Program-made: the position numbers and the translations under genes | Part shown: positions 8,669-61,315 of the stretch, piece after piece | Layout of the letters: the number at the start of each line of letters is the position of its first letter | Numbering within the stretch: position 1 is the first letter of the stretch | Notes under the pieces: generated by a model | The model's database searches: none | What the model saw: only the letters and a program-made list of their open reading frames with translations | What the model was told of the DNA's origin: nothing | Assembly (NCBI RefSeq): GCF_006345805.1 | Contig: NC_043010.1 | Span: forward strand, 35,774,001-35,838,000 | Direction of reading: 5' to 3' | DNA length: 64,000 nucleotides | Source: Octopus sinensis | Lineage: Eukaryota

Positions 8669-9735
8669 CTAACAATAATCTGTTAACAATAATATGTGGG
8701 ATGGTCACATATGGAACACCTTTGATTATAGGGGTTATATGGGGCGCTTACAGCAGAATTCCACCCCAAACTGTAATGACTATGGCCAAAGTGTCTTTAC
8801 GACGGCAATGATTACTGATTCAGAATGCAAAGAGCCAGGAGAAATGTTGCAATGCTTTTCAATGCTTTTCATTCAGACTATCTCTAACGGTTTCTACCAA
8901 TCCGCTCTCCTAATCCACTCTCTTGCTATGTAACAACAGTAACAACAGACAACGAGGATGCTTCTACCCAGTCGCTCATTTCAGCGAGAAATAGCAGCCA
9001 AATTTCCTTCGAATAAATTGCATTCTACTAACCGAGAGAGAGTGCATTAGATATTCTTGTTCAAAATTCAAAACAAACCGAAGCAACAAAACAAAAAAAC
9101 AACAACAAAAAACAAAACAAAACAAAAAAAAAACACAACCCCTTCACCACCCCCTCCAAAACCTCTACTAAACTTGAAATAAAGTCGAGAGTATCTTTGT
9201 AGGCCTATTTGATTAGAACAGACCTAGGTCTAAACAACATTACCCATCACCACCACCACAACAACAAGAGCAACAACAACCAACCCTAATGGCAAATAAA
9301 AGTCGTAGCAATAGCAATTGCAAAATCTCGTCTATAAACGATAACGAAAAGAGCCTTAACTGGTCCCTCAATATCCTAGAAATAACAGTGAAATCTCCTT
9401 GAAATTATCCCCTACTGGTTAAAACAAAATCACATGCACTATACGTTAAGAAATGGTATGGTCATGGCTTTGGTATGGTCATAGCTGGAATGATTTTGAT
9501 GGTGGGCCCACTCAGGACAGACTTGGGACTACAGAACGCCAACAATCACAACAAATATATAAAACAATATCAACAACATCAACAACAACGGTTGAAACAG
9601 CAGCAGCAACAGCAGCGGCAACAACACCAACAATAACAGCAATAATAACGTCAACAGTGGATGATTTCTGGGATGGGCCGAGCAGCGATTTCGGATTCCG
9701 ATTTTCCTTGGTTTTTGTCGTTTTTCTTTGGTGGT

Positions 9736-9834
9736 TCAACAATTACAAATGGGACCCTTCGTTGAGTTCATCGACTCTTCTGACTGCCCGATATTCTCAG
9801 CATACTCAATGGTGACTGGTTGAAATTTGAAAAG
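9736..9834 (-). CDS. Rab GTPase, candidate distal alternative last exon (LFKFQPVTIEYAENIGQSEESMNSTKGPICNC*)
   Basis: Acceptor tcttcttttAG; phase-0 open frame of 32 codons ending in CXC then TGA; joins in frame to the exon at 19776-19895. Confidence 0.65.
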   Translation of the reverse strand, partial: LFKFQPVTIEYAENIGQSEESMNSTKGPICNC

Positions 9835-9844
9835 CTAAAAGAAG

Positions 9845-9907
<63 letters not shown>

Positions 9908-9912
9908 TCATC

Positions 9913-10290
9913 ATTGAGAAAGAAAGCAAACTATGCTGGATCATAGGTATAGCATGCCCAGCTGACAATAAGGTATGGGATAAGGAAGAAAAAAATGTCG
10001 ATAGATATGACAGGTTAGCTTGGGAGGTTAAGCAGTTGTGGTCGATGAAATAGGTGGTAGTGGTACCATTAATTGTCGGGGACCTGGGAACAGTAACTAA
10101 AAATCTTGAGAAGTACATGGAACAAATAGGGGCTGCAATAAGGGTGGAGCACTTGCAGAAAACGGCACTGCTTGGAACCGCTCGAATACTCCTGAAGGTG
10201 CTCGAAAAAATAGGGGGTGTTACCTTAGTTCACTGGTAGTGAACAGCTGACACCTTAGTACATCTCCAGCGTTAGAAGCTGTGCAAAGGC
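9913..10290 (+). mobile_element. R4/Dong-type non-LTR element family 1, 5'-truncated
   Basis: RLE-type C-terminus (LCWIIGIACPAD..KNVDRYDRLAWEVKQLW..VPLIVGDLG..LQKTALLGTARIL); homologous to 51915-52291; (AAT)n on both sides. Confidence 0.85.
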
Positions 10291-10324
<34 letters not shown>

Positions 10325-10325
<1 letters not shown>

Positions 10326-10718
10326 TAGTTTCAAATTTTGGCTCAAGCCCAGCAATTTTGGGGGAAGGGTGAGTCGATTACATCAATCCAAGTGATCAAC
10401 TGGTACTTATTTTATCAACGCCGAAAGGATGTACAGATGACAGGTAAAAGCGGCAGACGAAATACTGCTAAGCATTTCGCCCGGGTGCTAACGATTCTGT
10501 TAGTTCACCGTCTTAATAATAGTAACAATCCGTTCTAATGAAAGCACAAGGCTAGAAATTTGGTGGGGAGGGGACTAATCGATTACATCGACCCCGGTGT
10601 TTGGACCCCAGTGTTTCACTGGTACTTAATTTATCGACCTAGAAAAGATGACAGGCAAAGTGGACCTCGGCGGAATTTGAACTCAGAACATAGCTAACGA
10701 TTCTGCCAGTTCGCCGCC

Positions 10719-10722
<4 letters not shown>
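10325..10722 (-). mobile_element. Two SINE family D (tail B) copies between (AAT)n tracts
   Basis: Match to the family D core and head. Confidence 0.75.
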
Positions 10723-10766
<44 letters not shown>

Positions 10767-11021
10767 TAATAATAATAATAATAATAAGAAGAAGAAGAAG
10801 AAGAAGAAGAAGGAAAAGAAAAAGAAGAAGGAGAATAATAAGAATAGAAAGAAGAGGAAAAGGAAGAAAAGGAAGAAGAATAGGAAAAAGAATAAAAATA
10901 ATAATGATGATAATAACAATAATAATAATAACAATAATAATAATAATAATAATAAGAAGAAGAAGAAGAAGGAGAATAAGAAGTAGAGGAAGAATAGGAA
11001 GAAGAAAAGGAAGAAAAATGG

Positions 11022-11062
<41 letters not shown>

Positions 11063-11669
11063 GGAAGAAGAATAGGAGGAAGAATATGAAGAAGAAGAAT
11101 ATGAAGAAGAAGAAGAATATGAAGAAGAAGAAGAAGAAGAAGAAGAAGAAGAAGAAGAAGAAAATGATGATGATGATGATGGTGGTGGCGGTGGTCGTAA
11201 AAGAATGGTTGAATTATAAACGAATAGCAGAATAAGAGACATAAATATTAATCAAGGTGTTTTCACACTTTAACAATAGACACATTCGACTTAATAGATT
11301 TAGGCTGGAGGGATGTTTGTTAGATTTGAGGAAAGTATGGATTAGTTACTTTATTCTGACCAAGCCCCCACCCCACCCCACCCCACCCCACCCCATCCCA
11401 CCACACTTAATAAGAAAAAATGTAGCATCTGATTCGGTTGAGAGATGGTTAGAATTAGAGGGTTTGGTGGTTCGTGATTTAGCTTTGGGTTATTGTTCTG
11501 TTAGATTCAAGTATTCTGTTAGGATTAAGGATTAACCGCTTTCTATTTTTTTTTTTCCGAACGAGGAGATTTGGCGCAGCTGTTTGGAAGCTGGTAATTT
11601 GGCAAGGCTGATTGGACATCGTGTTTGTTTTGGTGACAGCACTTTTTCGTACCGGAGGCAAACACACAC

Positions 11670-11703
<34 letters not shown>

Positions 11704-11836
11704 TTCAGATTGTTCTCAATGTAAAATGAAATACGTAATCTCAAAACATGCATGCATGCGCGCGCAGAAATATACATATAGGCAGGAAGTGAGTGAGAGA
11801 AAAAGAATGAAAGAGAGAGAAAGAGAGAGAGAGAGA

Positions 11837-11893
<57 letters not shown>

Positions 11894-12289
11894 GAGGCAG
11901 AGAACGCAAGAAGCTTTCAAGAGTCTCATGTCAAACAAGTCAGCGTCGAATCAATGATACCAAATATGTGGTGTCAAAACAGCTCCCTTCTCGTTTAAAA
12001 TGTAGAAAGCAGATAAGGGTTTGGTTAGATTCAGTTTAGGAATTGTTAGAATTCGATATTCTGGTGGTTTGTAGGTTAGTTTTAGGTCGTTCTTGAAAAT
12101 TTTTTATTGTTAGGGAATGTTTATTAGCGATTAGAAGAGCAGTGAGGTAGTTGGTTGTTGTGAAGAGACAGGATAAATATTGTCAGTTTACTGAAGTAGC
12201 CTTGCTTCTATAACCTCTCGACTCGTAATTGCCAGGAACACGACGCACAAATAGTGGCATCGCTTTTTCTATAATCCATTATTCTTTTA

Positions 12290-12501
12290 TTCTTTTATTT
12301 GTTTCAGTCATCTGACTGCGGCCATGCTGGAGCACCGCCTTTAGTGTCGAAGAAGTCGACCACGGGACTTATCCTTTGTAAGCCTAGTACTTATTCTATA
12401 TCGGTCTCTTTTGCCGAACCGCTAAGTTCCGGGGATGTAAACACACCGACATCGGTTGTCAAGCGATGGTGGTGGTGGTGCAACACAGGCACACAAACGC
12501 A

Positions 12502-12561
<60 letters not shown>

Positions 12562-12802
12562 TATACACACATGCACACCCTCACACAAACACACAAACAC
12601 ATACACACACACAAACACACAAACACATACATACGTATACAGACATATATACGACGAGCTTCTTTCAGTTTCCGCCTACCAGATCCCTCTATAAGGCTTT
12701 GGTTGGCCCGAAGACACTTGCTCAAGGTGTCACGCAGTGGGACTGAACCTGGAACCATGTACTTGGGAAGCAAGCTTCTTACCACACAACCACGCCTGCG
12801 CC
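12290..12802 (-). mobile_element. SINE family A
   Basis: Reverse-complement match to 2923-3325 with expanded internal (TG)n. Confidence 0.85.
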
Positions 12803-13204
12803 TTTTATTATTTTTTTCTACCGATTTCAGTCTTTGGACTGCGGTTATACAAGGGCACTGCTTTTAAAATATTTAGTCGATTCTTTCCAGAATTTTCCAT
12901 TGTATTTTGTTTGGCATCTATTCTGTTGATCACGTAAGGAACGTAAGGCAAAGTCAGTTTTGGTGAAAAAAGATATCACTCGGAACTAAATATTTCAGAA
13001 TTGATGCAATTCTTAATGTATCGTTTCATCCCTAACCAGTATAGAGCTCTCTCTTCCTACCCCCACTCTCTCTCCAGTCTATGATAGTGCAAGACATAGA
13101 CATCAGCCTCAGCAGCAGCAGCAGCAACAGAGCGATATCAACAACGGCATCATCATCGTCGTCATCACCAGCAGCAGCAGCAATCGCAGCAACTCAACGC
13201 TGCT

Positions 13205-14050
13205 TTCCAGATTAGCAATGAAAAGTTGAAATCAATTATTATTGGTGAGTCACAGAAGAAACAAGTCCAGTTGGAGGATGAAAATTCTGGAAATCGTGGA
13301 TTCGTTCACCTACTTGGGTTGTAGCATCGCCAATAATGGATAAGGCGGCGATCTGGTAGAAACGTTAGCACGCCGGGCGAGCCGTATTTCGTCTGCCGTT
13401 ACGTTCTAAGTTCAAATTCCGCCGAGGTCGACTTTGCCTTTCATCCTTTCGGGGTCGATTAAATAAGTACCAGTTACGCACTGGGGTCGATATAATCGAC
13501 TTAATCCGTTTGTCTGTCCTTGTTTGTCCCCCCTGTGTTTAGCCCCTTGTGGGTAGTAAAGAAATATAAATAATGGATATTCGGAAAGTGATGTGGAGAG
13601 AAGACTTAGCAAAGTTGCAGCTGTCTTCTAGCACCCGAAGCCTTTATGGTCTTAGCACTTCATTAAACAAGGCAACAAAAACTCCGTCTGTATACATCCA
13701 TTGTAATGTTGACAATACTTGTGAGACAAGGAAAAAGGCCAGCAGAATCTTTAGAACTAAGATGTCCACTATAGACGTTGCCGTAGGACCATACAAATAA
13801 TTTCTTAACCTAGCTACGTCATGAATAAAGAAGTCATGGGAAAAGCAAACTGTGCAACTTACGGCTTACCACCAGCGTAAGACGAGCGAAGATGCCGGAC
13901 CATGTGTTACGCGTACTCACGAAGAGATGAATGATAGCCTCTCTTGAGTGGAAGTTAAAGAATACACGTGGGAAGCAAAAGCGAACTTGCGAAGATCTGG
14001 TGGAGAACGTTAGAGGAGGACCTGGCAAATACAACCATGGTCTCGGAGCA
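13205..14050 (+). mobile_element. Decayed RTE-clade LINE 3' fragment, interrupted by a SINE
   Basis: Remnant peptides ILEIVDSFTYLGCSIANNG and LEWKLKNTRGKQKRTCEDLVENVR resemble the RTE ORF C-terminal region; multiple stops and frameshifts. Confidence 0.55.
13341..13568 (+). mobile_element. SINE family D (tail A) with target-site duplication
   Basis: Full head, core and tail; AATAATGGATA duplicated at 13332-13342 and 13569-13579. Confidence 0.9.
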
Positions 14051-14751
14051 TGCTCAAGACAGGTCTTGCAACTGTGCCGTATGGATATCTCTCGTCTTCC
14101 GATTCTCCTTATGAAGGATCGGGAGGAACTCGGATTATATGTGGTAGAATCATTAAACTTATGTACTTAAGCCCTTCAATCTCTATGGAACGTAGGCCAT
14201 CGACGACTTTTTTCCTCTGTTCTCGACTCTGGGCTGTATTTTTCTCTCTCAGGTCATGTTCGCTTTGAATTGCCATTGATATTTCTGGAACTTTGTTTTA
14301 TACTAGGTAGGAGCATTGACCCTACAAAAATCCATTTTTATTCCCGTCCAGTATGAAAAGATATGTCTTGCGCTCCACCGACACAACTCTGAGCGTCATC
14401 AAAACACACAAGCCACCATACCACAACAAGAACTGAAGCTTGTGGCGGAGAGTCGCGGAAAAAATGCTTTGCGATATTTATTCCGGCTGTATGTGCTCTG
14501 AGTTCAAATCCCATTGAGCCAGTTTCATCTTTCATTCTTTCGGGATCGATAAATACAGTTCCAGTCCAGAACAGGAGAGTGGATTGGCAGAATCGGTAGA
14601 GCATCGGTTGGAACACCTGGTGGTATCACTTCCTGCTTCTTGTATTCTGAATTGTGACGAGTCTAGACACGCCCTCTTGAGAAATGTTAGTGCAAGTACC
14701 CAAGTATTTCTTCATGGTATCACACCAGCTGGCAGGAGGGCGAAAGGGAGT

Positions 14752-14784
<33 letters not shown>

Positions 14785-15094
14785 AGAGACTCTGAGAAGA
14801 CTAAACCGTAAAAAATTACTAATATTATAAATTAGATAAAAAAGCTGATTTTATGTGATTTATTTTATGGGCTGTAGGGACGTATACTCGTAAAGGGCTA
14901 AAATCTGGTTCAGAAATATCCGCATGGAGAGAAAGCTAGTCCCTATTGAAACTAACTTCTCCGGATTTTCTTTTTTTAAAAGATGAAGTCAACAATTAAC
15001 AAAACTACTACTGTAGTAGTAGTAGTAGTAGCAGCAGCAGCAGCATTACAGCCACAGAAACATATCAATAACAACGACAACAGCTACTACTAAA

Positions 15095-15140
<46 letters not shown>

Positions 15141-15192
15141 GTAGCAGCATTACAACCACAGCAAACATCAATAACAACGATGACGACAACAG

Positions 15193-15235
<43 letters not shown>

Positions 15236-15376
15236 CTCAGCGACAACAATGACAACAACAACAACTAAAGATACCCAAACCTCACATTGTTAATCAGAGC
15301 AATGGCGGCGCGATGGTGATAGTAAAGGGGGGTGGTGGTAATGGCGGTGGTGGTGGTGGTGGTGGTGGTCGAACGT

Positions 15377-15490
15377 TCAACATGCACATTTACGTATTTT
15401 GTCGTCTTTTACTTTGAATGGAGGTGAGTCGTTCAATTCTGCTTTGGTTATCTCTTCTGGAATGGTTAAGTTCGGGTAATATTGCGACAT
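15377..15490 (-). CDS. Rab GTPase, proximal last exon (MSQYYPNLTIPEEITKAELNDSPPFKVKDDKIRKCAC*)
   Basis: Acceptor ctttctctatttacAG; phase 0; 37 codons ending in basic residues plus CXC and TGA. Confidence 0.85.
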   Translation of the reverse strand: MSQYYPNLTIPEEITKAELNDSPPFKVKDDKIRKCAC

Positions 15491-16539
15491 CTGTAAATAG
15501 AGAAAGCAACCGTAATTAAGAAGCGGTGACAACCACCATTAACAACTACAACAACAACAACAACAACAGCAGCAACAGCAACAAGAACAAGAACAACAAC
15601 AGCAACAGCAGCAGCAGCAACAAGAACAAGAACAAGAACAACAACAACAACAACAACAACACGACAATTCAACAAGAGCAAGAACAGCAACAGCAGCAGC
15701 AACAACAACAACAACAACAGCAACAACAACAACAACACGACAATTCAACAAGAGCAAGAACAGCAACAGCAGCAGCAGCAGCGGCGGCAGCAGCAGCAGC
15801 GGCAGCAGCAGCAGCCGCAGCTGTTCAAGAATTTGGACCTAGAGATCTCCATTTCCAGCGACTTGGAGGGCCACCTCCCAGTGGTGTCGGGCGTCAACGA
15901 AGAGCCCTCGACTACAACAAGACGACCAAAGTTTTTTTTTTTCCAAGGTCTGGGGTCTTCCGCCCCTAAGCCCTAGACCATCACCTAATCACCCTTACCA
16001 GTCCTGTTGCTTAACAACAACAATAACAGCGGCAGCAGCAGTGCTGTCATTAACAGCAACGTGCCAACGTAGGAGCCTTTAGGTTAAGAAGCGAGGAAGC
16101 CACCCTTTCTTCACCCGCATTCAAATGTAAAACTACCGATTGGTAAAGCCACTTGTTCCAGTCACTAGACTCCGGCCATGCTGGAGCACCACCTTTAGTC
16201 AAACAAATCGACTCCGGTACTTATTTTCTTTTTAAAGTCTGGAACTCATTCTATCGGTTTCTTTCGCCGAACTACTAAATTGTGGAGACGTAAAGAAACC
16301 GGGACTTGGTAACCAACGTTGGTTTGTTTACGCTCCTGTAACTTAGCAGTTCTGTAAAAGAGACCGATAGAAATTGGTACCACACTTTAAAAATTAAATA
16401 ATGGGGTCAGTTTGTTCGACTAAAGATTCTTCAAGGTTGTGCCCCTGAATGGCCGCAGTCTACTGACTGAAATAACTAAAAGATGAAAGATAAAAGATAG
16501 TTCTGAAGGCTGTGCATCTAGTTGCTGTTCAGTTTACTA

Positions 16540-17831
16540 CGAGGGGCGTTCAATAAGTAATGCCTCTGACCCACTTGCCGTTGATTGATCTAGCTGAGAT
16601 TTTGCATGTGTAATTATTTATATCTCTATAGATTAAGTGGCAAATTACAGCTCCGAACTAATAGTGGTTTCTGATTTACATGTGTTTGAAATGAGTCAAG
16701 TGGGAAATGGAGCCTGTTGAGTGTCGAGAAGTGATCCGGTGTTTGTATTTGAAATGACGCACACCACAAGAGACTTTTGATGAAATGAAAATAACTTATG
16801 GTGATGATGCCCCATCATATGACCTTGTAAAACGCTGGCATCGTGAATTCAAACATGGTCGGAACTCTGTGGAAACAGCTCCCAGATCTGGTCGCACCCC
16901 TTCTGCCATTGATGAGGCATCTGTCCGTCAAGTTGAGGCTGCCATTTTGGAAGATGGACGCATAACTATTCGCCAAATAGCCCATGAGGTCAAGATTCGT
17001 ACCGGGTCTGTGGAAACTATCATTCATGACCATTTGCATATGCAAAAGGTGTCTGCCAGAGGGATTCCCAGGTTGCTCACACTTTTCCTGAAGCAAGAAC
17101 GCGTCGAGTGCTCGAGGATGAATTTAGGGATGTGCCAAGAAGATGAGTCAAAATTTTTCAAAAGACTGATTACACAGGATGCGACCTGGGTCCTTCACCA
17201 TGATCCAGAGACCAAAGCCCAGTCAATGCAGTGGAAGCACCATGACTCACCTCCTCCAAAGAAGGCAAGGGTGCAGCCCTCCGCTGGCAAGGTCATGCTC
17301 ACAGTCTTCTGGGACCAGGACGGAGTAGTGATGACAGATTTCCTGGCAAAGGGTACCACAATTACAGGAGCCTATCATGCTTCACTTTTGAGGAAATTAA
17401 GAGAAGCTATCAAAACAAAGAGGCGGGGCAAGATCAGCAAAGGCATCCTCCTCCTGCAGGACAACGCTCCGGTCCACAACTCGCGTGTCGCCAGATCAGA
17501 AGCACAGGCGTGCGGCTATGAACACTTCCCCCATCCCCCTACTCTCCTGACATTGCACCCTCTGATTTTCACCTCTTCCCAGCCATGAAGTTGTTTTTGA
17601 AAGGAAAACGTTTCCCAGGTGATGCAGCCTTGATTTCTGAAGTCACGTCGTGGTTGGAGGACCAAGCTGGGGTCTTCTATGAAAACGGTCTCCAGAGCTG
17701 TATCAAATGATGGGAGAAATGCGTAACTCTGGGTTGTTCCTATGCTGAAAAAGACTAATACCTGTGCCAAGTTTCGTTGCTCTACTGCTATGGGAAGTGG
17801 GTCAGGGGCATTACTTATTGAACGCCCCTCG
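16540..17831 (+). mobile_element. Full-length mariner transposon (irritans-like TIR), 1292 bp
   Basis: 37-bp TIRs CGAGGGGCGTTCAATAAGTAATGCCYCTGACCCACTT with one mismatch; TA on both sides. Confidence 0.95.
16707..17758 (+). pseudogene. Mariner DD34D transposase, disabled
   Basis: ATG at 16707, in-frame TGA near 16755, motifs ITQDATW, LQDNAPVH and YSPDIAPSD; frameshift near 17540 and a second stop near 17708. Confidence 0.9.
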
Positions 17832-18399
17832 TATGTATGTAGTATAAAGCGGTGCCGCTTTCTTTATAATAAAGATTTTCTAACATAGGCATAAGACCGG
17901 AGGTGGACAGTCGATTGTACTAACCCTAGTACTCGCCAGCGATGCCCAGGAGAAAAAACAAAACAAAAACAAAGTCACCCTTGATAGGATTTGAACTTAA
18001 AATGTAAAGGCCCGAAGCTAAATGCTGCAAATTAGTATGCCCGACGCTTCGACGGTTCTCTTAAGGTAGATCGAAGTGTAGCATGACATTCGAACTGGTT
18101 TCTTTGTGTTAAGTACCTCAGTTGTTTTGGATTGCCTTCCATAGTTTGAGTTTGCTTAAATCGTAGCGTAACGCTCGAACTTATTGCATTATGTTAACTA
18201 TTTCGATTATATTTTCAGTTACCTTCCATAGTTTTAGGAGGTTTAAATGTTTAGAGCATAGTCTTATTTCTCGAACACGTTCTATCTTGTTAAGTTTGTC
18301 GATGAAGTTTCCGATTGTCTTCCATAGTTTTAGGTTGTTTAAATGCTTAAGACGTAGTGTAACTCAACTCTCTAACTCGTAGTTTCAGTTCGTTTAAAT

Positions 18400-18825
18400 C
18401 GAAGGACGGTTGATAAGAAAAATTGTTAAAGAGTTGGAAAAATACTTTGCGGTATTTGTTCTTGTTCTTTATGTTCTGAGCTCAAATCTCACCGCTGTCA
18501 ACTTGTCTTTTCATCTTATCGGGGTCGATAAAGTATCAATCAAGTACAGGAGTCGATGGTATCAGCTAACTTCTCTCCTCAATTTTTTTGCCTTACTTCT
18601 AAATCGGAAAACTTAGCGGTGAGCTAGTGGAAGCGTTAAAACATCTGAAAAATTGCGGTATTTTTCCGGTTCTTTACGTTCTGAGTTCAAGTCTCGCCGA
18701 AGTCAACTTTTCCTTTTAACCTTTCGAGAGTCTATAAAATGAAATACCAAACAAATACTGGGCCGATGCTATCAACTAACCCGTTCTCCTCACAGTTGCT
18801 GACTTTGTGCCTAAATTAGAAGCAA
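18400..18825 (+). mobile_element. Two degenerate SINE family D copies
   Basis: Diverged match to the core CTTTCATC..CGGGGTCGATAAA and to tail B. Confidence 0.6.
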
Positions 18826-19775
18826 TTAGTTTAAACACGCGATGTTCCCTTACGGGCAGTTAATATAAGGGAGATAATAATAATTTCTTCATAATATTTG
18901 GCGGGATTACAAGCTTGAATTTGAAATTTGCAATAAGGTAAAAGATGTATAGAATACACATATCTAATTTTGTTGGTGTTGCTTATTGCAGAGTTCTTAA
19001 AATTTCTAGTCAGTGATATCCATGTATAGTACCATTTCATTCTTTTTAGAAGTCGTCAGCATGGTATAACCTGAGATATATTAATTAATCCTTTTTTGAA
19101 GTGAAACATTTCTTTTAGATGGAAAATAATTAGTCCGGAAGAAATGCAGACTAAGTTTCTACTTCAAAGAACGTTTAACAATGGAGAGAGAAGGAAGTTC
19201 TTCGTGTCTGCATACAGGTTAACTGTATCATGCATTTTGATTATGCTTTTGAATTCTTTTCATAGCTAGGATTGTTTAAAGCATATCACTTGAACATACA
19301 TTGTGATAAGAACGATCAATAATATTACATAGATATTTTCTTGCAATTTGTATCTTAAACACAAGATCATGAATTTGGGGTAAATAGGTATAATCGATAA
19401 TATCGATCTTATAATCTGACTGGTGCAATATATTGTCAACTTCGGAAGAATGAAAAGCAAAGTCACACTCAGTGGGACTTGAACTCAGAACGTGACGGTT
19501 CCTATAGAAATAATGACTTCTAATGACAGAAATTTTGTTTGGGGTGGGTGTGTGCAGCCGATTCTGTCGAGTCTTAGTGCCTGACTGATACTTTATTTTA
19601 TTGAAACCGGTAGGATGAAGGGCAAAACTGAACTCGGTTTGAATTTGAATTCAGGAGATAACACGATCGAACTGCCGGCCAATCATATATTTCCAAATTC
19701 AAATTAAAAAATTTAAAGTAACAAAGGTGATATAGTGGGTGGGTTGTAGGAAAATCAGAAATGAGTAGTACTTAC

Positions 19776-19895
19776 CAACTGGGGATTGCAAATGTCTGTG
19801 ATGTGGTATGCCAAACGTTCAAAGACTAGCTGTACGTTTTCACCGGTTTTGGCACTTGTTTCAAAGAACTCAAACGCCATTTCTCTCGCGGCTAA
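19776..19895 (-). CDS. Rab GTPase exon with G5 motif (LAAREMAFEFFETSAKTGENVQLVFERLAYHITDICNPQL)
   Basis: catttcAG acceptor, GTAAGT donor, 120 nt in phase 0; ETSAK motif. Confidence 0.95.
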
Positions 19896-21479: not shown

Positions 21480-21587
21480 CTTTTTGCCCTTGCTGGTAGA
21501 AACTTTAATTCGGTCTTTCAGATCAATTTTATTGCCAATCAGTACGATGGGTACTGGTTCCAAGTGATTATGACTGTGTGATATTTC
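21480..21587 (-). CDS. Rab GTPase exon with G4 motif (EISHSHNHLEPVPIVLIGNKIDLKDRIKVSTSKGKK)
   Basis: ttctctctgtAG acceptor, GTATGT donor, 108 nt in phase 0; GNKID motif. Confidence 0.95.
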
Positions 21588-25490: not shown

Positions 25491-26167
25491 TTACAATTAT
25501 TAAATAGAGATACTTTACGACATAGTATATGAATATGAATTTACACAAAGCCAAAACGTTTGTTACACAACATCTTCACTTCTGAAACATCAATAAACGT
25601 ATGGAACAACAAATAACTTACCTTTCGAGCAATCTTTAGCGTTTTAAAGGAAAACAAAAACAAACATTAAATATTAAACATTAAACTGTCATGTCGGACA
25701 CCTTCTGTTATTTTTTCTCTTTTTTTTTGTGTGTGAGTAAACTTCAAATTGAAATCAATAAAAATAAGTGAATGATAATTTGTATTGCCAGAGTCACAAA
25801 GCGAGTTCAGTTTTTCCCCCTCTGATATTTCTTCTTCATTCATTCTCTCTTTCTTTTTTAAATATAAATTCGCTTATATACATATTTTAATTTCATATCG
25901 ATGAGACTGAAGAGTTAGGGAAAATGAAATTAGTATCGATGAGTTCGGTGAATTTATTTCGCATTGTGAAATTCGAACTCGAATTGAAGTTTAAGATGCG
26001 AAAAGGAAACCGAAAACAAACTGATATTTGAATACGGTGTTTTGTTTGTTGACCTTCGATAACAGTGTTATTTTCGTATATATATATATACATATGCATA
26101 TGTGTGTGTGTGTGTATATACATGTATATATATAATGATATACATATATTTAGACATACATAAATAC

Positions 26168-28417: not shown

Positions 28418-28495
28418 GTTGTTTATGCTGTTCATCCAGTATGAAAGATGTGTAAACGTTGAAGGGTTCGTCACATCGTACACCAGAACAATACC
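28418..28495 (-). CDS. Rab GTPase exon (GIVLVYDVTNPSTFTHLSYWMNSINN)
   Basis: tttttttcacAG acceptor, GTAAGT donor, 78 nt in phase 0; RabF5-type LVYDVT motif. Confidence 0.95.
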
Positions 28496-37156: not shown

Positions 37157-37256
37157 NNNNNNNNNNNNNNNNNNNNNNNNNNNNNNNNNNNNNNNNNNNN
37201 NNNNNNNNNNNNNNNNNNNNNNNNNNNNNNNNNNNNNNNNNNNNNNNNNNNNNNNN
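37157..37256. other. Assembly gap (100 N)
   Basis: Run of n; true size unknown. Confidence 1.
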
Positions 37257-55819: not shown

Positions 55820-56830
55820 TCACAGGCGAAACCTGAGAACTGGTCCATTTATACAGGCCAGTCTCGCACAATTCACCCACCTTTCATAAAACTTGCTATC
55901 GGACAGCACTTTCCTCTCTAACCTCATTTTCCTTTTCAAGTGAAACTTGAAAAAGTTGATGAGGCCTTGACCAAAGAGGAAAGTGTCTGACTTTAGCCCT
56001 TTCAAACGAGTCCACCACACCACCTCTTTCGCCACAGCCACTAGGCACAAGAAAACGGCCTCGCCCTCCTTGTTAAAGGAGGTCGGTGGGGCAATCTTCA
56101 CTATGGATTCGGCCGATAGTCGGATCCGTCCTACACGTGACAGTAGCTGTTCGACATAAACCCATATTTCAGCAATACTCGGGCACTGGACGAGTGCGTG
56201 CAGGACGGTTTCGTCGTCCTGGCAACACCTCGGGCAGGCCCGGCTGACGGCACTTCCGTGCCGGTAGAGTTTATCTCGAACAGGCAGAGCCCCTCGGTAG
56301 CACTGCCAGGCGAGAGACCTCTGGAAATTATCCATCGGCCCCGGCCCGAAAGTCCTCCCGAACAGACCGCACAGTTCGTCATCTTCAACGCCTAGAGTTT
56401 CCCCGAGAACGTCGTCGCATTTTTCCTCCACTAACCCTCTATAGAACGCTAGAGTGGAGCTGTAACCGATCGCATTGCCCGCCTGACGGAGGGCGGAGAG
56501 GGCTTGACGGCACTCGAGGTGCCAAGCGCCCTTTCTCGGTCTACGTTTGATCCAGGTCTGCAGCTCCGTCAAAGAGACGAGCTGCGGAAAATCGCGTCTG
56601 ACAAAAGACGACCACACCTGTTCACCGTCTAGGAAGCGCTTGAGATGCCGCAGCCTGAGCGCATGTCCGCGCAACAGCAACCACGGCATTCCAAGGCCTC
56701 CGTTCAGCGGTCGTTGACAGCAGATGGATCGCCTGACCAGTGGCACCTGACCCTTCCACAAAAAGTCGAAGAGCAGGCGTACCAGCTTGGCCAACCAGCG
56801 GTCGGGACAAGGGACGACGGTCAAGCGACG
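55820..56830 (-). CDS. Tx1 ORF2 C-terminal part (after frameshift), with CCHC zinc finger
   Basis: FLWKG, GGLGMP, CPRCCQDDETVLHALVQC. Confidence 0.88.
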   Translation of the reverse strand, partial: RRLTVVPCPDRWLAKLVRLLFDFLWKGQVPLVRRSICCQRPLNGGLGMPWLLLRGHALRLRHLKRFLDGEQVWSSFVRRDFPQLVSLTELQTWIKRRPRKGAWHLECRQALSALRQAGNAIGYSSTLAFYRGLVEEKCDDVLGETLGVEDDELCGLFGRTFGPGPMDNFQRSLAWQCYRGALPVRDKLYRHGSAVSRACPRCCQDDETVLHALVQCPSIAEIWVYVEQLLSRVGRIRLSAESIVKIAPPTSFNKEGEAVFLCLVAVAKEVVWWTRLKGLKSDTFLFGQGLINFFKFHLKRKMRLERKVLSDSKFYERWVNCARLACINGPVLRFRL

Positions 56831-59247
56831 ACGGATGCGATGTACGCATTCGCCACCTCCGCTCGACCTTTCAGGGACAGCTTCCTCTCGGCCCATTTCT
56901 GGGTGAGACGTGCCACCCTGCTCGTCACCTCTTCCCAGTTCTTATCCACCTGGAGGTCCGGACCGAACCAGACCCCGAGCAGTTTAACGGGTCCGTCTGT
57001 CCAGCGCCCTACGACGCTGTTGGACGGCATGGGCTTGCCTCTCCAGGTGCCCAGTTGCAAGCCCACAGACTTTTCCGCGTTAATCTTTGCCCCTGTCACC
57101 GCTTCGTACTGGTTTAGCGTCTCGCCAATCAGGCCAATGTGCCTGTGACTCGACACCACCACGGTGACGTCGTCGGCATAAGCAGACACGCTGTTTCCTC
57201 CTCCTAGATCGCGCGGGATACCCCTCAAAGCCTCCAACTTGCGCAGTAATGGCTCGAGAGTCAAAATGTACAAGAGGGAGGAGAGAGGGCATCCTTGGCG
57301 GACCGAACGCGAGATGTCGAACGGTTCCGAAAGGTGACCGTTCACCCGTATCACCGAGCAGATGTTGCTGTATAAAGCAGCGATCCACCCGCGGAAGACT
57401 GGACCGAAGCCGGCTGCCCTGAGGACAGCTGCCAGGTACCGATGGTCGACCCTATCGAAGGCTTTACTCTGATCCAAGTTGATCAAAGCCCCACCCGCGC
57501 CAGCGTCGTTACCCACCCTCTCTACGATGTAGCGCATGAGATGGAGGTTGTCGTGTATCGACCTGGTCGGCACGGCGCATGTCTGCGTCTTGCCGACCAG
57601 CTTGTCCACGACAAGCGCCAATCTCTTGGCTAGCACCTTGGCCAAAATCTTCAACTCTGCATTGAGCAGAGTGATGGGCCGGAAATTTCCTATAACGTCC
57701 CCCTTGTTTGGGTCCTTCTTTAGCAAAGCCACCACCCCTCGACAGACAAAAGCAGGAATTCTCCCGTTTTGCTGCCAGTTGCAGTAGACGTTTGCCAACA
57801 GGTCCGCAAACAAGTCTGGCATTGAAAAGTAAAGCTCGTAGGGCAGACCATCCAAACCCGGCGATCTACCTCTCGTGCAACTCTTCATCGCTTCCTGTAC
57901 TTCCCAGGCAGATATCGGTCCTTCGCAGCACTCTGCCTCGCTGTCCGAGAGTTGCGGCAGGCCGTCCAGGTACACACCGAAGTCTGTACCGTTGGTGTCC
58001 GTTCCACCGCTCGTCCCAAACAGTTGAGCAAAGTGCCGCTGAAGCACCGTACACATCTGCTTCGGTTCGGTAACCTCGCGCCCGTTCTGGTCCACCAAAG
58101 ACCGAATGGTTGCTCTGTTGCCTCGCTTCGCCTCCGCCACGCGGGCCCATCGAGCGGCTCTAGTCCCCTCCCCGCTTAGCGAACGTGCCTTAGCTCTGAC
58201 AACGCAGCCTTCGTGTTTGGCGTCGAAGTGTTGGTCGAGGGCCAACCTTGCCGCCAACACGTCGGTCGCGATGCCAGTGTCAAGAGCCTCGTCTAGTTTC
58301 TTAACTAAATCCCGCTCTCTCTTCCTACGTTCAATAGCTAGAGTCTTACTATACCTAATCGACTCTACTCTAATTGCTCTCTTGAGGGCAAACCACCAGT
58401 TGTTGTTGATGATTGTCCCCGTGAGCGCCCGCTTAACTAGTAAACTAATCCGGTCTCTGTAAGCTTTGCACGCCGTTAATGACGCGTTCAGCTTCCAGTA
58501 GCCGGGTCCCTGTCTATGTAGCCTATCTAAGTCGACCGTACAGATCACTAATTTGTGGTCCGTATATTCGACTAGGTGGAATTGTGGACACCCTACGCTG
58601 TCCTTATCCGCTGGCCTACAAAACACTCTATCTAAGTACGATCTAGACGACCCGATGCGGTTTGTCCAAGTCCACATTGGCACATTCGGGTTGTCTAGTC
58701 GAAACCTGTCGGACAGCTGAAAGCGGCCGAGTAGGTTGGCGAGGCTCTTGCACCCTCCCCCTCTCCTATCAGACGCTCCCCTGCCCACCCGATCGAAACG
58801 TTCGTCTAAGACAGCGTTCCAATCCCCAACTAGCACTAGAGTGCGTGACGTTCCCAGGAAAACTTCCAGACGTTTGAAATAATCCGACTGCCCTGCTCTT
58901 GTTGGAGCGTAGGCAGCCAGCAGTCTGAAAGCACCGCCGTCACTACCGTCCACGTCGAGGACCACCAACATACCTTCCGGATCCAAGAAGACTGTCCTTA
59001 TTTTCAGGTCCAGGCCCTTCCGAAACAACACCGCAGTACCACCACCGCCCGCTCCCGGCCGACACGGAGATAGAAATATCTCGTATCCGCCGAAAAGGGC
59101 TGCGAGTCCCTGCGGGTCGGAGAGCCTGGTTTCACTGATGGCTGCTACATCCACATCATGAAACCTCAGGTCGTTTAACAGGTGACCCTGTTTCCAAGGT
59201 GACCCGAGGCCTCTCACATTCAAGCAACCGATTCTAAGATTTGCCAT
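56821..59247 (-). CDS. Tx1 ORF2: APE endonuclease and reverse transcriptase
   Basis: APE motifs LNVRGL, SETR, GDWNA, YLDRVF, TDHK; RT motifs SPGLDGL, FRPITLLN, DQSKAFDRVDH, RQGCPLS, YADD. Confidence 0.96.
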   Translation of the reverse strand: MANLRIGCLNVRGLGSPWKQGHLLNDLRFHDVDVAAISETRLSDPQGLAALFGGYEIFLSPCRPGAGGGGTAVLFRKGLDLKIRTVFLDPEGMLVVLDVDGSDGGAFRLLAAYAPTRAGQSDYFKRLEVFLGTSRTLVLVGDWNAVLDERFDRVGRGASDRRGGGCKSLANLLGRFQLSDRFRLDNPNVPMWTWTNRIGSSRSYLDRVFCRPADKDSVGCPQFHLVEYTDHKLVICTVDLDRLHRQGPGYWKLNASLTACKAYRDRISLLVKRALTGTIINNNWWFALKRAIRVESIRYSKTLAIERRKRERDLVKKLDEALDTGIATDVLAARLALDQHFDAKHEGCVVRAKARSLSGEGTRAARWARVAEAKRGNRATIRSLVDQNGREVTEPKQMCTVLQRHFAQLFGTSGGTDTNGTDFGVYLDGLPQLSDSEAECCEGPISAWEVQEAMKSCTRGRSPGLDGLPYELYFSMPDLFADLLANVYCNWQQNGRIPAFVCRGVVALLKKDPNKGDVIGNFRPITLLNAELKILAKVLAKRLALVVDKLVGKTQTCAVPTRSIHDNLHLMRYIVERVGNDAGAGGALINLDQSKAFDRVDHRYLAAVLRAAGFGPVFRGWIAALYSNICSVIRVNGHLSEPFDISRSVRQGCPLSSLLYILTLEPLLRKLEALRGIPRDLGGGNSVSAYADDVTVVVSSHRHIGLIGETLNQYEAVTGAKINAEKSVGLQLGTWRGKPMPSNSVVGRWTDGPVKLLGVWFGPDLQVDKNWEEVTSRVARLTQKWAERKLSLKGRAEVANAYIASVVA

Positions 59248-59682
59248 GTCTCAAAAGTAGGGGGAAAAAAGGAGAAAAAAGGCTCTACTTACTGTTGTTG
59301 GTGGTGGGGGTGGCTCCCTTGTGCTTTTGCACGGGTGCTTCCACAATGTTTTTATAAAGTTTCTTCGAGAAACTTTTCCCTAGCGATCCCACATCGTTAG
59401 GGAATATTTGTTTGATTTCATCATATGTTTTTGCATTTATTTTTATTGTGAGAATGTGTGCTGGTGGGTGGTGTTTGTGTTGGTATGATGAAATCGGTTA
59501 TATTTGTACTAGTTTTGTTTTTTAAGTACTCCACTAGTTTTTGGTTCTTTGTGTTTATTGATGTAATTGTGTCTGTGTGTGTTTGTGTGTGTGGCAGTGG
59601 CAGTAGTGGTGTCGAAAGTGTTGTTGTTGTTGTTGTTGTGAGTGTGTGTTGTTGTTGTTGTTGTTGTTGATGTTGGGAAGCA

Positions 59683-61089
59683 CTATTTGTTCGTGCTTCC
59701 CCTGTAAATCTTTTTGTTTTTTCCTCCTTTTCTCTTTGGAGGCACTATACTCCATTCTCCTTTGTTGGAATCAGAGCTCGCACAATCCGACTCTTCATCC
59801 GGCAAAGGAATGGTTGAGGGGTCTGCTTCAGTAGCAGGACGAAAGGTTTTTGGTTCCGCCGGTATCGGTGGTGCCGCTGCTCCTGTTGCTGTTGATGTTG
59901 CTGCAGTTGATTTTCGAGGTACTGGTGTCGGTGTTGGTTTGGTGGTGGTTGTTGTTGTTCGTCTTGGTGCTGGCGTTGGTGATGGTGTTGGTGGTGTGGC
60001 AGCCTTTGGTGTTTCTTGCTGTTTTTGTTGTTTCTGTTGTTGTGGCTTGTGTTGTTGTTGTTGTTGCTGCTGCCTCTTGCTGAAAGCCTCCATCCTCTTT
60101 TTGTGAATGGGACAGTCCCTCTTTAAGTGGCTTTCGCTGCTGCAGAGGAAACATTTTGGCTTTCGCCCCTCCACAGCAACGTTTAGCCTGGTGCCGTCCG
60201 GCAAACTTACGAAATCAGGGACTTTACTGATATTCTCTTGCTGAATTTGCGCAAGAAGCAGCACTCCCATCCCCAACCAGTTTTTCGCCCTCACTCTCCT
60301 GACATCTAGAATGGTGGTAGTGTCCTCTATATCATAGAGGACAGCTTCCACCAGCCATGACATATCTAGCTCAGGGGGGGCGAGGTCGATTTTTATTTTT
60401 GTTACTCTTCGCCCGAGGTGGGTCGGAACTAGTAACAAATTCTCAGTTTGCAAGGGCGAAATGGCGTTCGCCCTTGCAAGCTCCTCTGTTGGGAAGCGAA
60501 CCTCCACGGTTCCAAAACGCTTCCCCTTGGTTACGTAGCTATTTTGGGCCCAAATGGGCTTTAGAGCTATCTCCAACTGTTGGGGTGTGGCATTTGTCAT
60601 TCTTTTTAGTTTTCTGTCGAAAACTTTGTATATTATTGTTTTCTTGTTGGTGCTTTCAATCACCTCTTGTGGAGTATTGAGGAAGATGCCATTGCCATCC
60701 TTCCTCAACAACTCCTTCGCTCTTTTCACATCTTCTAGAGTTATCTTAACTTCCTCCGAAATTTGCTTCGCAGCAGAAGCAAAATTGTTGGAAGTTTTTT
60801 CTTTTTTCTCCGTGTCAATGTTTGTAATGATTTTTGTAATTGTTTTTCCTTCCTCCTCCTTCCGTACCAAAGCATTGGGTGAAGGCAGAGGGGGAAAATC
60901 GAGAATTACGTCGAACGCGACGTCCTGGCTTGCATTCTCCTTTTGAACGGAGCGCGTGCTCTCCGGTTCGGAAGGAGGATCTTTGTTGCCTTTTAAGGCG
61001 TGAAGTGGGTGTTTTGGACGAATTGTGTGTGTTTGCGGAGGGAATGTATCTTGAAGGAAGGAACAGCCAACTGTTCGCTTCATAGCCAT
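59683..61089 (-). CDS. Tx1 ORF1: nucleic-acid-binding protein with zinc knuckle
   Basis: 468 aa; CFLCSSESHLKRDC (CX2CX4HX4C); Q/T/P-rich tail; lies upstream of ORF2. Confidence 0.9.
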   Translation of the reverse strand: MAMKRTVGCSFLQDTFPPQTHTIRPKHPLHALKGNKDPPSEPESTRSVQKENASQDVAFDVILDFPPLPSPNALVRKEEEGKTITKIITNIDTEKKEKTSNNFASAAKQISEEVKITLEDVKRAKELLRKDGNGIFLNTPQEVIESTNKKTIIYKVFDRKLKRMTNATPQQLEIALKPIWAQNSYVTKGKRFGTVEVRFPTEELARANAISPLQTENLLLVPTHLGRRVTKIKIDLAPPELDMSWLVEAVLYDIEDTTTILDVRRVRAKNWLGMGVLLLAQIQQENISKVPDFVSLPDGTRLNVAVEGRKPKCFLCSSESHLKRDCPIHKKRMEAFSKRQQQQQQQHKPQQQKQQKQQETPKAATPPTPSPTPAPRRTTTTTTKPTPTPVPRKSTAATSTATGAAAPPIPAEPKTFRPATEADPSTIPLPDEESDCASSDSNKGEWSIVPPKRKGGKNKKIYRGSTNK

Positions 61090-61315
61090 GTTTTTTTTGT
61101 AATATTCAAAAAGTTTAAAATGTCAAATTTTCAAAGTTTCAAAACGTAATTTCACCCCGAATGGGCAAAATTTCGCCCAACCGACGAGCTCCGCAAGAAG
61201 CCGGTCGGTTTGGCTACAAAAATATTAAAAAATATTCAAACTTATCAATAGATTTCCAGTGAAATTGGTGTCAAATTCACGGAGCTTTTTCAGACACGTC
61301 CATCGGCGTCGGAAG

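Follow-up and report, generated by a model that had tools for sequence, protein, structure and literature searches.

One octopus Rab gene encodes two CXC-ending tails through two 5' splice sites of its penultimate exon

The DNA analyzed here is a window of 64,000 nucleotides from Octopus sinensis (contig NC_043010.1, positions 35,774,001 to 35,838,000; G000:C14:35774001-35838000 of a 2.72-Gb genome), which carries on its minus strand a single gene for a Rab small GTPase. All exons of this gene that lie in the window are joined in phase 0 (positions below are those of the window). The most upstream exon present in the assembly, exon A (28418..28495, 78 nt), is followed by exon B (21480..21587, 108 nt), carrying the G4 motif, and exon C (19776..19895, 120 nt), carrying the G5 motif. 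Downstream of exon C, the penultimate exon, D1, has two 5' splice sites (donors), at 15413 and 15286, both of which are joined to the same acceptor, at 9834, of the last exon, D2. Splicing from the inner donor, 15413, produces a long acidic tail ending in CNC, and splicing from the outer donor, 15286, produces a short tail ending in CAC and leaves the last exon as 3' untranslated region (UTR).

The D1 part shared by both isoforms (15413..15490, 78 nt) consists of 26 codons ending in F-K and abuts the inner donor, AAA/GTAAAA, the GT of which, at 15412, is the only phase-0 GT in D1. The tail of the short isoform (15377..15412; 11 codons and the stop that follows CAC) is intronic in the long isoform, and the 91 nt after that stop (15286..15376) form a 3' UTR segment that ends at the outer donor, AAT/GTGAGG. 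D2 proper (9736..9834) is the 5' part of the shared last exon: In the long isoform, it contributes 32 codons ending in CNC and the stop, and in the short one, it is 3' UTR. Both isoforms thus share 26 residues directly after exon C and differ only in the last 11 (short) or 32 (long). The introns removed measure 5,578 nt from the inner donor and 5,451 nt from the outer one. The common 3' UTR (9645..9735) is covered in all four runs considered below and extends past 9645; a hexamer scan downstream of 9645 found no AATAAA or ATTAAA before 7752, and the poly(A) site was not located. Compared with the 5' splice-site consensus, the inner donor matches at 6 of 9 positions, the outer donor at 7 of 9, and the other donors of the gene at 7 to 9 of 9. 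The weakness of the inner donor fits regulation but does not demonstrate it.

The junctions were traced in 4 of the 24 listed runs, namely, X1, X3, X23, and X24. Runs X23 and X24 are raw RNA runs of organism D, a relative, of each of which about 6% was read; X1 comes from organism A, for which no difference from the window is listed, and X3 from organism B. That X1 and X3 are RNA is a guess, although their contigs skip two introns at GT-AG ends. In the region 15255-15525, the junction of exon C with 15490, which an earlier note made from the letters of the window had predicted, is carried by 21 of the 23 aligned reads of X23 and 14 of the 18 of X24, as well as by the contigs of X1 and X3, which connect to exon C and continue past the inner donor as far as the CAC stop. 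In the same region, 5 reads of X23 and 11 of X24 pass from 15413 into D2-type sequence, and the depth beyond the inner donor is about 1 and 3, respectively. From the other side, over 9645-9850, 7 of 33 aligned reads of X23 run from 9834 into the 15413 sequence with an agreement of 0.81, and no loose end is listed for the 19 aligned reads of X24. The contigs of X1 and X3 run from 9834 into 15286, with letters that match the window exactly and a GT beginning at 15285. The X3 records at the two regions have equal length (1141), depth, and strand, their coordinates fit end to end, and 88 letters separate their two matched parts, compared with 91 in the window; we read them as one mRNA or contig consisting of exon C, D1 with its stop, UTR, and D2. 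The short-form contigs assemble at a depth of 11-15, with no branch listed. Because 15413 and 15286 both join 9834, the last exon, D2, is common to the two mRNAs and D1 has a pair of donors, the arrangement that defines alternative 5' splice sites. Adenosine-to-inosine editing of the final exon base before the inner donor was considered as well and rejected, given that the consensus of the spliced reads carries the genomic A (this concerns the exonic base only).

These junctions bear directly on the gene model proposed in the earlier note, namely, a choice between two last exons that exclude each other, both spliced from 19776 and selected together with alternative polyadenylation. The building blocks of that model were placed correctly: The G5 exon (19895-19776) and the open frames 15490-15377 (ending in CAC) and 9834-9736 (ending in CNC), with phase-0 AG acceptors, are all present. 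Both acceptors being in phase 0 would indeed allow such splicing, AATAAA hexamers lie after the first stop (at 14864, 14482, and 14342), and, because an agreement of 0.81 over seven reads leaves about two X23 reads at 9834 that join another sequence, low-level skipping from 19776 may occur. However, all three loose ends listed at 9834 are D1 sequence (15413 or 15286) and none is 19776; the 19776-9834 junction is not listed in any of the four runs; no octopod protein examined joins exon C directly to D2; and the short form has a further splice, at 15286, so that 15490-15377 is not a terminal exon. Neither of the two donors had been recognized in the earlier note. Because both mRNAs run through 15490 and terminate in the same exon, that of 9834, alternative polyadenylation is not supported as a part of the choice. 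What survives of the proposal is one G-domain provided with two CXC tails by alternative splicing; separate last exons spliced from 19776 are largely refuted, and we give this model very little credence. Still more remote, and refuted by the junction reads, is the notion that the 9834 exon is part of a tandem paralogue or an open frame that arose by chance. No point in its favor was found, and several contradict it: 9834 is spliced to this gene in both reads and contigs, exons C, D1, and D2 each occupy one genomic place at 100% identity in a whole-genome search, the D2 frame is conserved in Argonauta, and, in agreement with the earlier note, no second G4 or G5 exon was found within the 64-kb window.

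The two tails are unrelated to each other, as had been claimed. BLASTP found no alignment between them, and their similarity is at chance level, the observed score being reached by 2,352 of 5,000 protein shuffles and 802 of 3,000 DNA shuffles; exon duplication as the source of the two tails was rejected because of this lack of similarity. Across the six frames of the window, CXC precedes 22 of 4,811 stops, and of the 21 candidate terminal exons that follow exon C, 3 have a CXC or CC end, namely, D1, D2, and a Cys-codon repeat. The occurrence of two CXC ends exceeds the chance expectation. Both tails carry the C-terminal di-cysteine motif of the type XXCXC, which is included in a published list of Rab C-terminal motifs (PMC5902227).

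Both isoforms are represented among database proteins. The long form, consisting of exon C, the start of D1, and the 32-residue D2 tail, is found in XP_036364773.1, Octopus vulgaris CAI9732902.1, and Argonauta GAB1604263.1, with a shared D1 part of 26 residues in the Octopus long forms and 24 in Argonauta. Exon C is 100% identical to RefSeq XP_036364773.1, which is labelled Octopus sinensis; this model was probably annotated on the same DNA and, hence, is not independent of the window. The short form, with the whole D1 tail, is found in Octopus bimaculoides (XP_014780379.1/80.1) and in a cluster of Logan sequences, and the short-isoform tail is also present in database sequences P0007, P0014, and P0009. 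Between the window and Argonauta, D2 has kept its 32 codons, frame, both ends, and CXC, with 8 of 32 residues identical, a level of identity reached by none of 100,000 shuffles (by 5 when the last three residues are left out). Organism D has 7 replacements among the 32 residues, with CNC kept before the stop and no listed coding indel, and in organism B, 1 of 32 differs; the 78-nt shared part of D1 shows no listed difference in organism D. Conservation of the 9834 frame and its CXC in relatives, on which the earlier note had staked its proposal, is thus borne out in both Argonauta (CXC) and organism D (CNC). Overall, both CXC tails are real, expressed, and conserved. The Argonauta long tail (P0008) ends in CAC, as the Octopus short tail does.

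In the Logan cluster, the short tail is the sole tail in all six members, with 7 of 11 residues and CAC identical to Octopus. The cluster has Ile in place of the Octopus Val, the codon of which supplies the GT of the inner donor; because of this replacement, its lineage cannot have the inner donor at this codon. In a 42-row tree, the cluster is sister to Octopus plus Argonauta (100/99), with the octopods grouped at 100/100, suggesting that it represents a non-octopod cephalopod. Outside Octopus, the long tail was found in Argonauta alone. Most simply, this distribution would mean an older short tail and a long tail specific to octopods, loss in the sister lineage being the alternative. The gastropod and bivalve orthologues (P0010-P0012, P0020-P0036) mostly have much longer, strongly basic tails with internal CC motifs (net charge +8 to +25 in those counted), unlike either cephalopod tail.

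The position of the inner junction suggests what the choice between the donors could change. The junction falls between K218 and the next residue, inside a [FI]-K-[LIV] triplet. All 13 sequences of an alignment that ranges from cephalopods to an annelid and a nemertean (and leaves out gastropods and bivalves) have K218, and the triplet occurs in all 12 tails checked, again with gastropod and bivalve tails outside the set; both isoforms rebuild it, as F-K-V and F-K-L. A three-residue tail motif, the CBR-interacting motif (CIM), is described as needed for prenylation, and its two hydrophobic residues as also binding a guanine nucleotide exchange factor (GEF) (PMC11618376); Rab escort protein (REP) is reported to bind the CIM, and a minimal linker of 9 residues is cited for prenylation (PMC5902227). 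The triplet is a plausible candidate for a CIM bound by REP and some GEFs. From the triplet to the first cysteine, the linker measures 7 residues in the short isoform and 28 in the long one, compared with 9-16 in seven non-cephalopod relatives. The short linker has 4 K/R and 2 D/E, the long one has 2 K/R and 4 D/E, and the net charge after the triplet is +2 versus -2. For the yeast TRAPPII complex, it has been proposed that the length of the tail gates access to the GEF (PMC10152722).

Because the candidate CIM is kept, the linkers differ in length and charge, and the length of a tail may gate access to a GEF, we propose a switch of tether length and charge. We are fairly confident in the resulting picture, in which one Rab gene makes two proteins by means of two donors of its penultimate exon, the choice likely setting the length and charge of the tether that connects the G-domain to its lipid anchor. 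Both forms are expected to be geranylgeranylated, and the extra acidic stretch of 21 residues may alter the efficiency of prenylation, the reach to a GEF, or the preference for a membrane. The weak inner donor might be regulated, and the short tail is presumably ancestral, with the long one gained in octopods.

Several considerations pull against this picture. Read counts are small, coming from about 6% of two raw runs; in no single run were both junctions identified letter by letter; and the read-through in X24 (3 reads) and X23 (about 1) may be unspliced pre-mRNA. The RNA status of X1 and X3 is guessed, and because they were picked up by a query rich in read-through words, they cannot show prevalence. 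About two of the seven X23 reads at 9834 join something else, possibly exon C. The runs carry no tissue labels, and sample is confounded with species. On the protein side, the fast change of D2 in organism D suggests that most of D2 is weakly constrained. The CIM was assigned by pattern, and another hydrophobic-x-hydrophobic triplet occurs earlier in the shared part; furthermore, the tail is reported not to be the sole determinant of Rab location (PMC11942325). Finally, the polarity of the tail change hinges on the single Logan cluster, known from protein sequence.

The main rival concerning function is dosage: The short mRNA would be degraded by nonsense-mediated mRNA decay (NMD), and the splice choice would mainly set the amount of the Rab. 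An exon junction at least 50 nt after the stop can elicit NMD, with evidence in flies too (PMC6173133), and the junction of the short mRNA lies 91 nt past its stop, beyond this 50-nt rule for decay of the exon junction complex type. In addition, the long form exceeds read-through in both X23 (5 versus about 1) and X24 (11 versus 3) despite its weaker donor. Against this rival, the short tail is conserved as protein and is the only tail in the Logan cluster, and the short-form contigs assemble at the depth given above with no branch listed. We consider it unlikely that dosage is the principal function. It is improbable, too, in our estimate, that the long form is tolerated splicing variation, that is, a cryptic donor reaching into the UTR, with CXC kept just for anchoring and the two proteins functionally equivalent. 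The weak inner donor, the 7 differences in organism D, and the mere 8 matches with Argonauta agree with such tolerance, but the length, frame, both ends, and CXC of D2 are kept as far as Argonauta, and the long form is the majority in the two raw runs.

Beyond the proposed switch of tether length and charge, a more specific scenario of de novo gain in octopods can be imagined, which we regard as possible but rather doubtful. A single base change, from an Ile to a Val codon, would have created a GT donor inside the REP/GEF-binding triplet and recruited a 3' UTR exon as 32 new codons that rebuild the triplet and end in CXC; a regulated tether-length switch would then send one Rab to two membranes, with the ancestral short form exposed to NMD.

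Human small GTPases provide the closest parallels. KRAS4A/4B and CDC42, which the earlier note had invoked, resemble the octopus gene in that one G-domain receives two intact membrane-targeting tails by alternative splicing. A preprint covering 167 human Ras-superfamily members describes nine further cases of C-terminal splicing, only CDC42 being like KRAS (PMC9882654), and KRAS and CDC42 are said to be the only human Ras-superfamily genes that give distinct membrane-targeting tails (PMC9882654; PMC9663995). KRAS is reported to have two homologous fourth exons, 4A having been captured from NRAS (PMC9882654). In contrast, the octopus tails are unrelated, derive from two donors of one exon, have their first 26 residues and the last exon in common, and carry the Rab-type CXC rather than CAAX at their ends. 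Thus, being neither separate exons from one donor nor homologous, they do not place the octopus Rab in the alternative-last-exon class. RAB28 is a Rab with three isoforms differing in the C terminus (PMC7326575), but two of the three RAB28 isoforms carry CAAX farnesylation motifs, whereas both octopus tails end in CXC and follow the same candidate CIM, and the octopus protein belongs to a different Rab group. For Rab1 and Rab11, tail length together with tail recognition is reported to affect which GEF activates the protein (PMC10152722). This gating by TRAPP complexes offers a model for how a linker of 7 versus 28 residues could matter, although it is known between paralogues, and the octopus case involves isoforms of one gene with no GEF known. 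Supplementary Fig. 9 of PMC9882654 may show similar structures for Rab8A, Rab35, or Rab15.

Among the results listed in searches of an open-access library, which lacks most subscription journals, there was no paper on this gene or its splice arrangement. Both proteins are already present in automatic annotations of different species; no publication was found that links them as products of a single locus. Few small-GTPase genes yield two intact membrane-targeting tails (KRAS, CDC42, and RAB28 do), and the contribution of the Rab tail to prenylation, GEF access, and membrane choice has long been debated. An isoform pair with the same G-domain and candidate CIM, differing solely in the length and charge of the linker, constitutes a natural test of the share of the tail in all three. 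The short mRNA, with its conserved tail and a junction 91 nt past the stop, is a ready reporter of whether junction-dependent NMD operates in molluscs.

The assignment of the gene to the Rab family comes from its full-length orthologues P0013 and P0007, which PF00071 matches at 175 bits, the window exons being 90-97% identical to P0013 over the tblastn matches. In a by-eye check against consensus motifs, G4, G5, and RabF5 were located in the window exons and G1-G3 in the orthologues only. The 5' exons coding for G1-G3 (residues 1-86) were not found genome-wide, where the best of 28 matches has 56% identity, nor in the window or the 150 kb upstream (C14:35838001-35988000); gaps of N are present at 37157-37256 of the window and in L035. 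The RefSeq model is correspondingly cut short, at 144 aa, whereas the X1 and X3 contigs have sufficient length to reach upstream of exon A.

The top matches among solved structures are Rab3C, Sec4, Rab18, Rab8A, and Rab10 (E values from 4e-38 to 1e-36), and the database names conflict, including Rab-3C, Rab-13-like, and Rab-8B-like. Although the best structure matches belong to the Rab8 supergroup (Rab3, Rab8, Rab10, Sec4, Rab18), the relatives of the octopus protein group apart from Rab3, Ypt2, and RabE. In the 42-row tree, the octopod Rab falls within a mollusc group nested in a wider invertebrate group (mollusc, brachiopod, annelid, nemertean, and priapulid), and the Rab3, Ypt2, and RabE/RabE1 rows form a separate group (100/99), in a tree that contains no vertebrate reference Rabs and in which long branches meet. 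As judged from sequence, the protein is a Rab of an invertebrate clade near the Rab8 supergroup, with no clear best orthologue. RabX4, described as a Rab8-derived family lost in vertebrates (PMC3425129), is a lead only for the subfamily identity. The Protein Atlas offered generic Ras-family clusters only.

Between exons A and B lies a microexon (25622..25633, minus strand) of 12 nt, coding for 4 residues, with AG/GT ends and a donor that matches the consensus perfectly (9 of 9). It is used in some database isoforms and not in others, its residues being present in P0006, P0007, and P0013 and absent from P0014, P0008, and the Logan cluster. The microexon appears to be a second, independent splice choice in the same Rab gene and is apparently restricted to Octopus.

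Two transposable elements were recognized in the window. A Mariner-type DNA transposon (16538-17833) lies in the intron between exon C and D1; its 42-nt inverted repeats are 95% complementary, and a plus-strand frame of 276 aa matches Transposase_1 and HTH_32. A LINE-type retrotransposon (long interspersed nuclear element) occupies 55820-61122 on the minus strand, with an upstream frame of 479 aa, an endonuclease and reverse transcriptase frame of 809 aa, and zf-RVT in a different reading frame.

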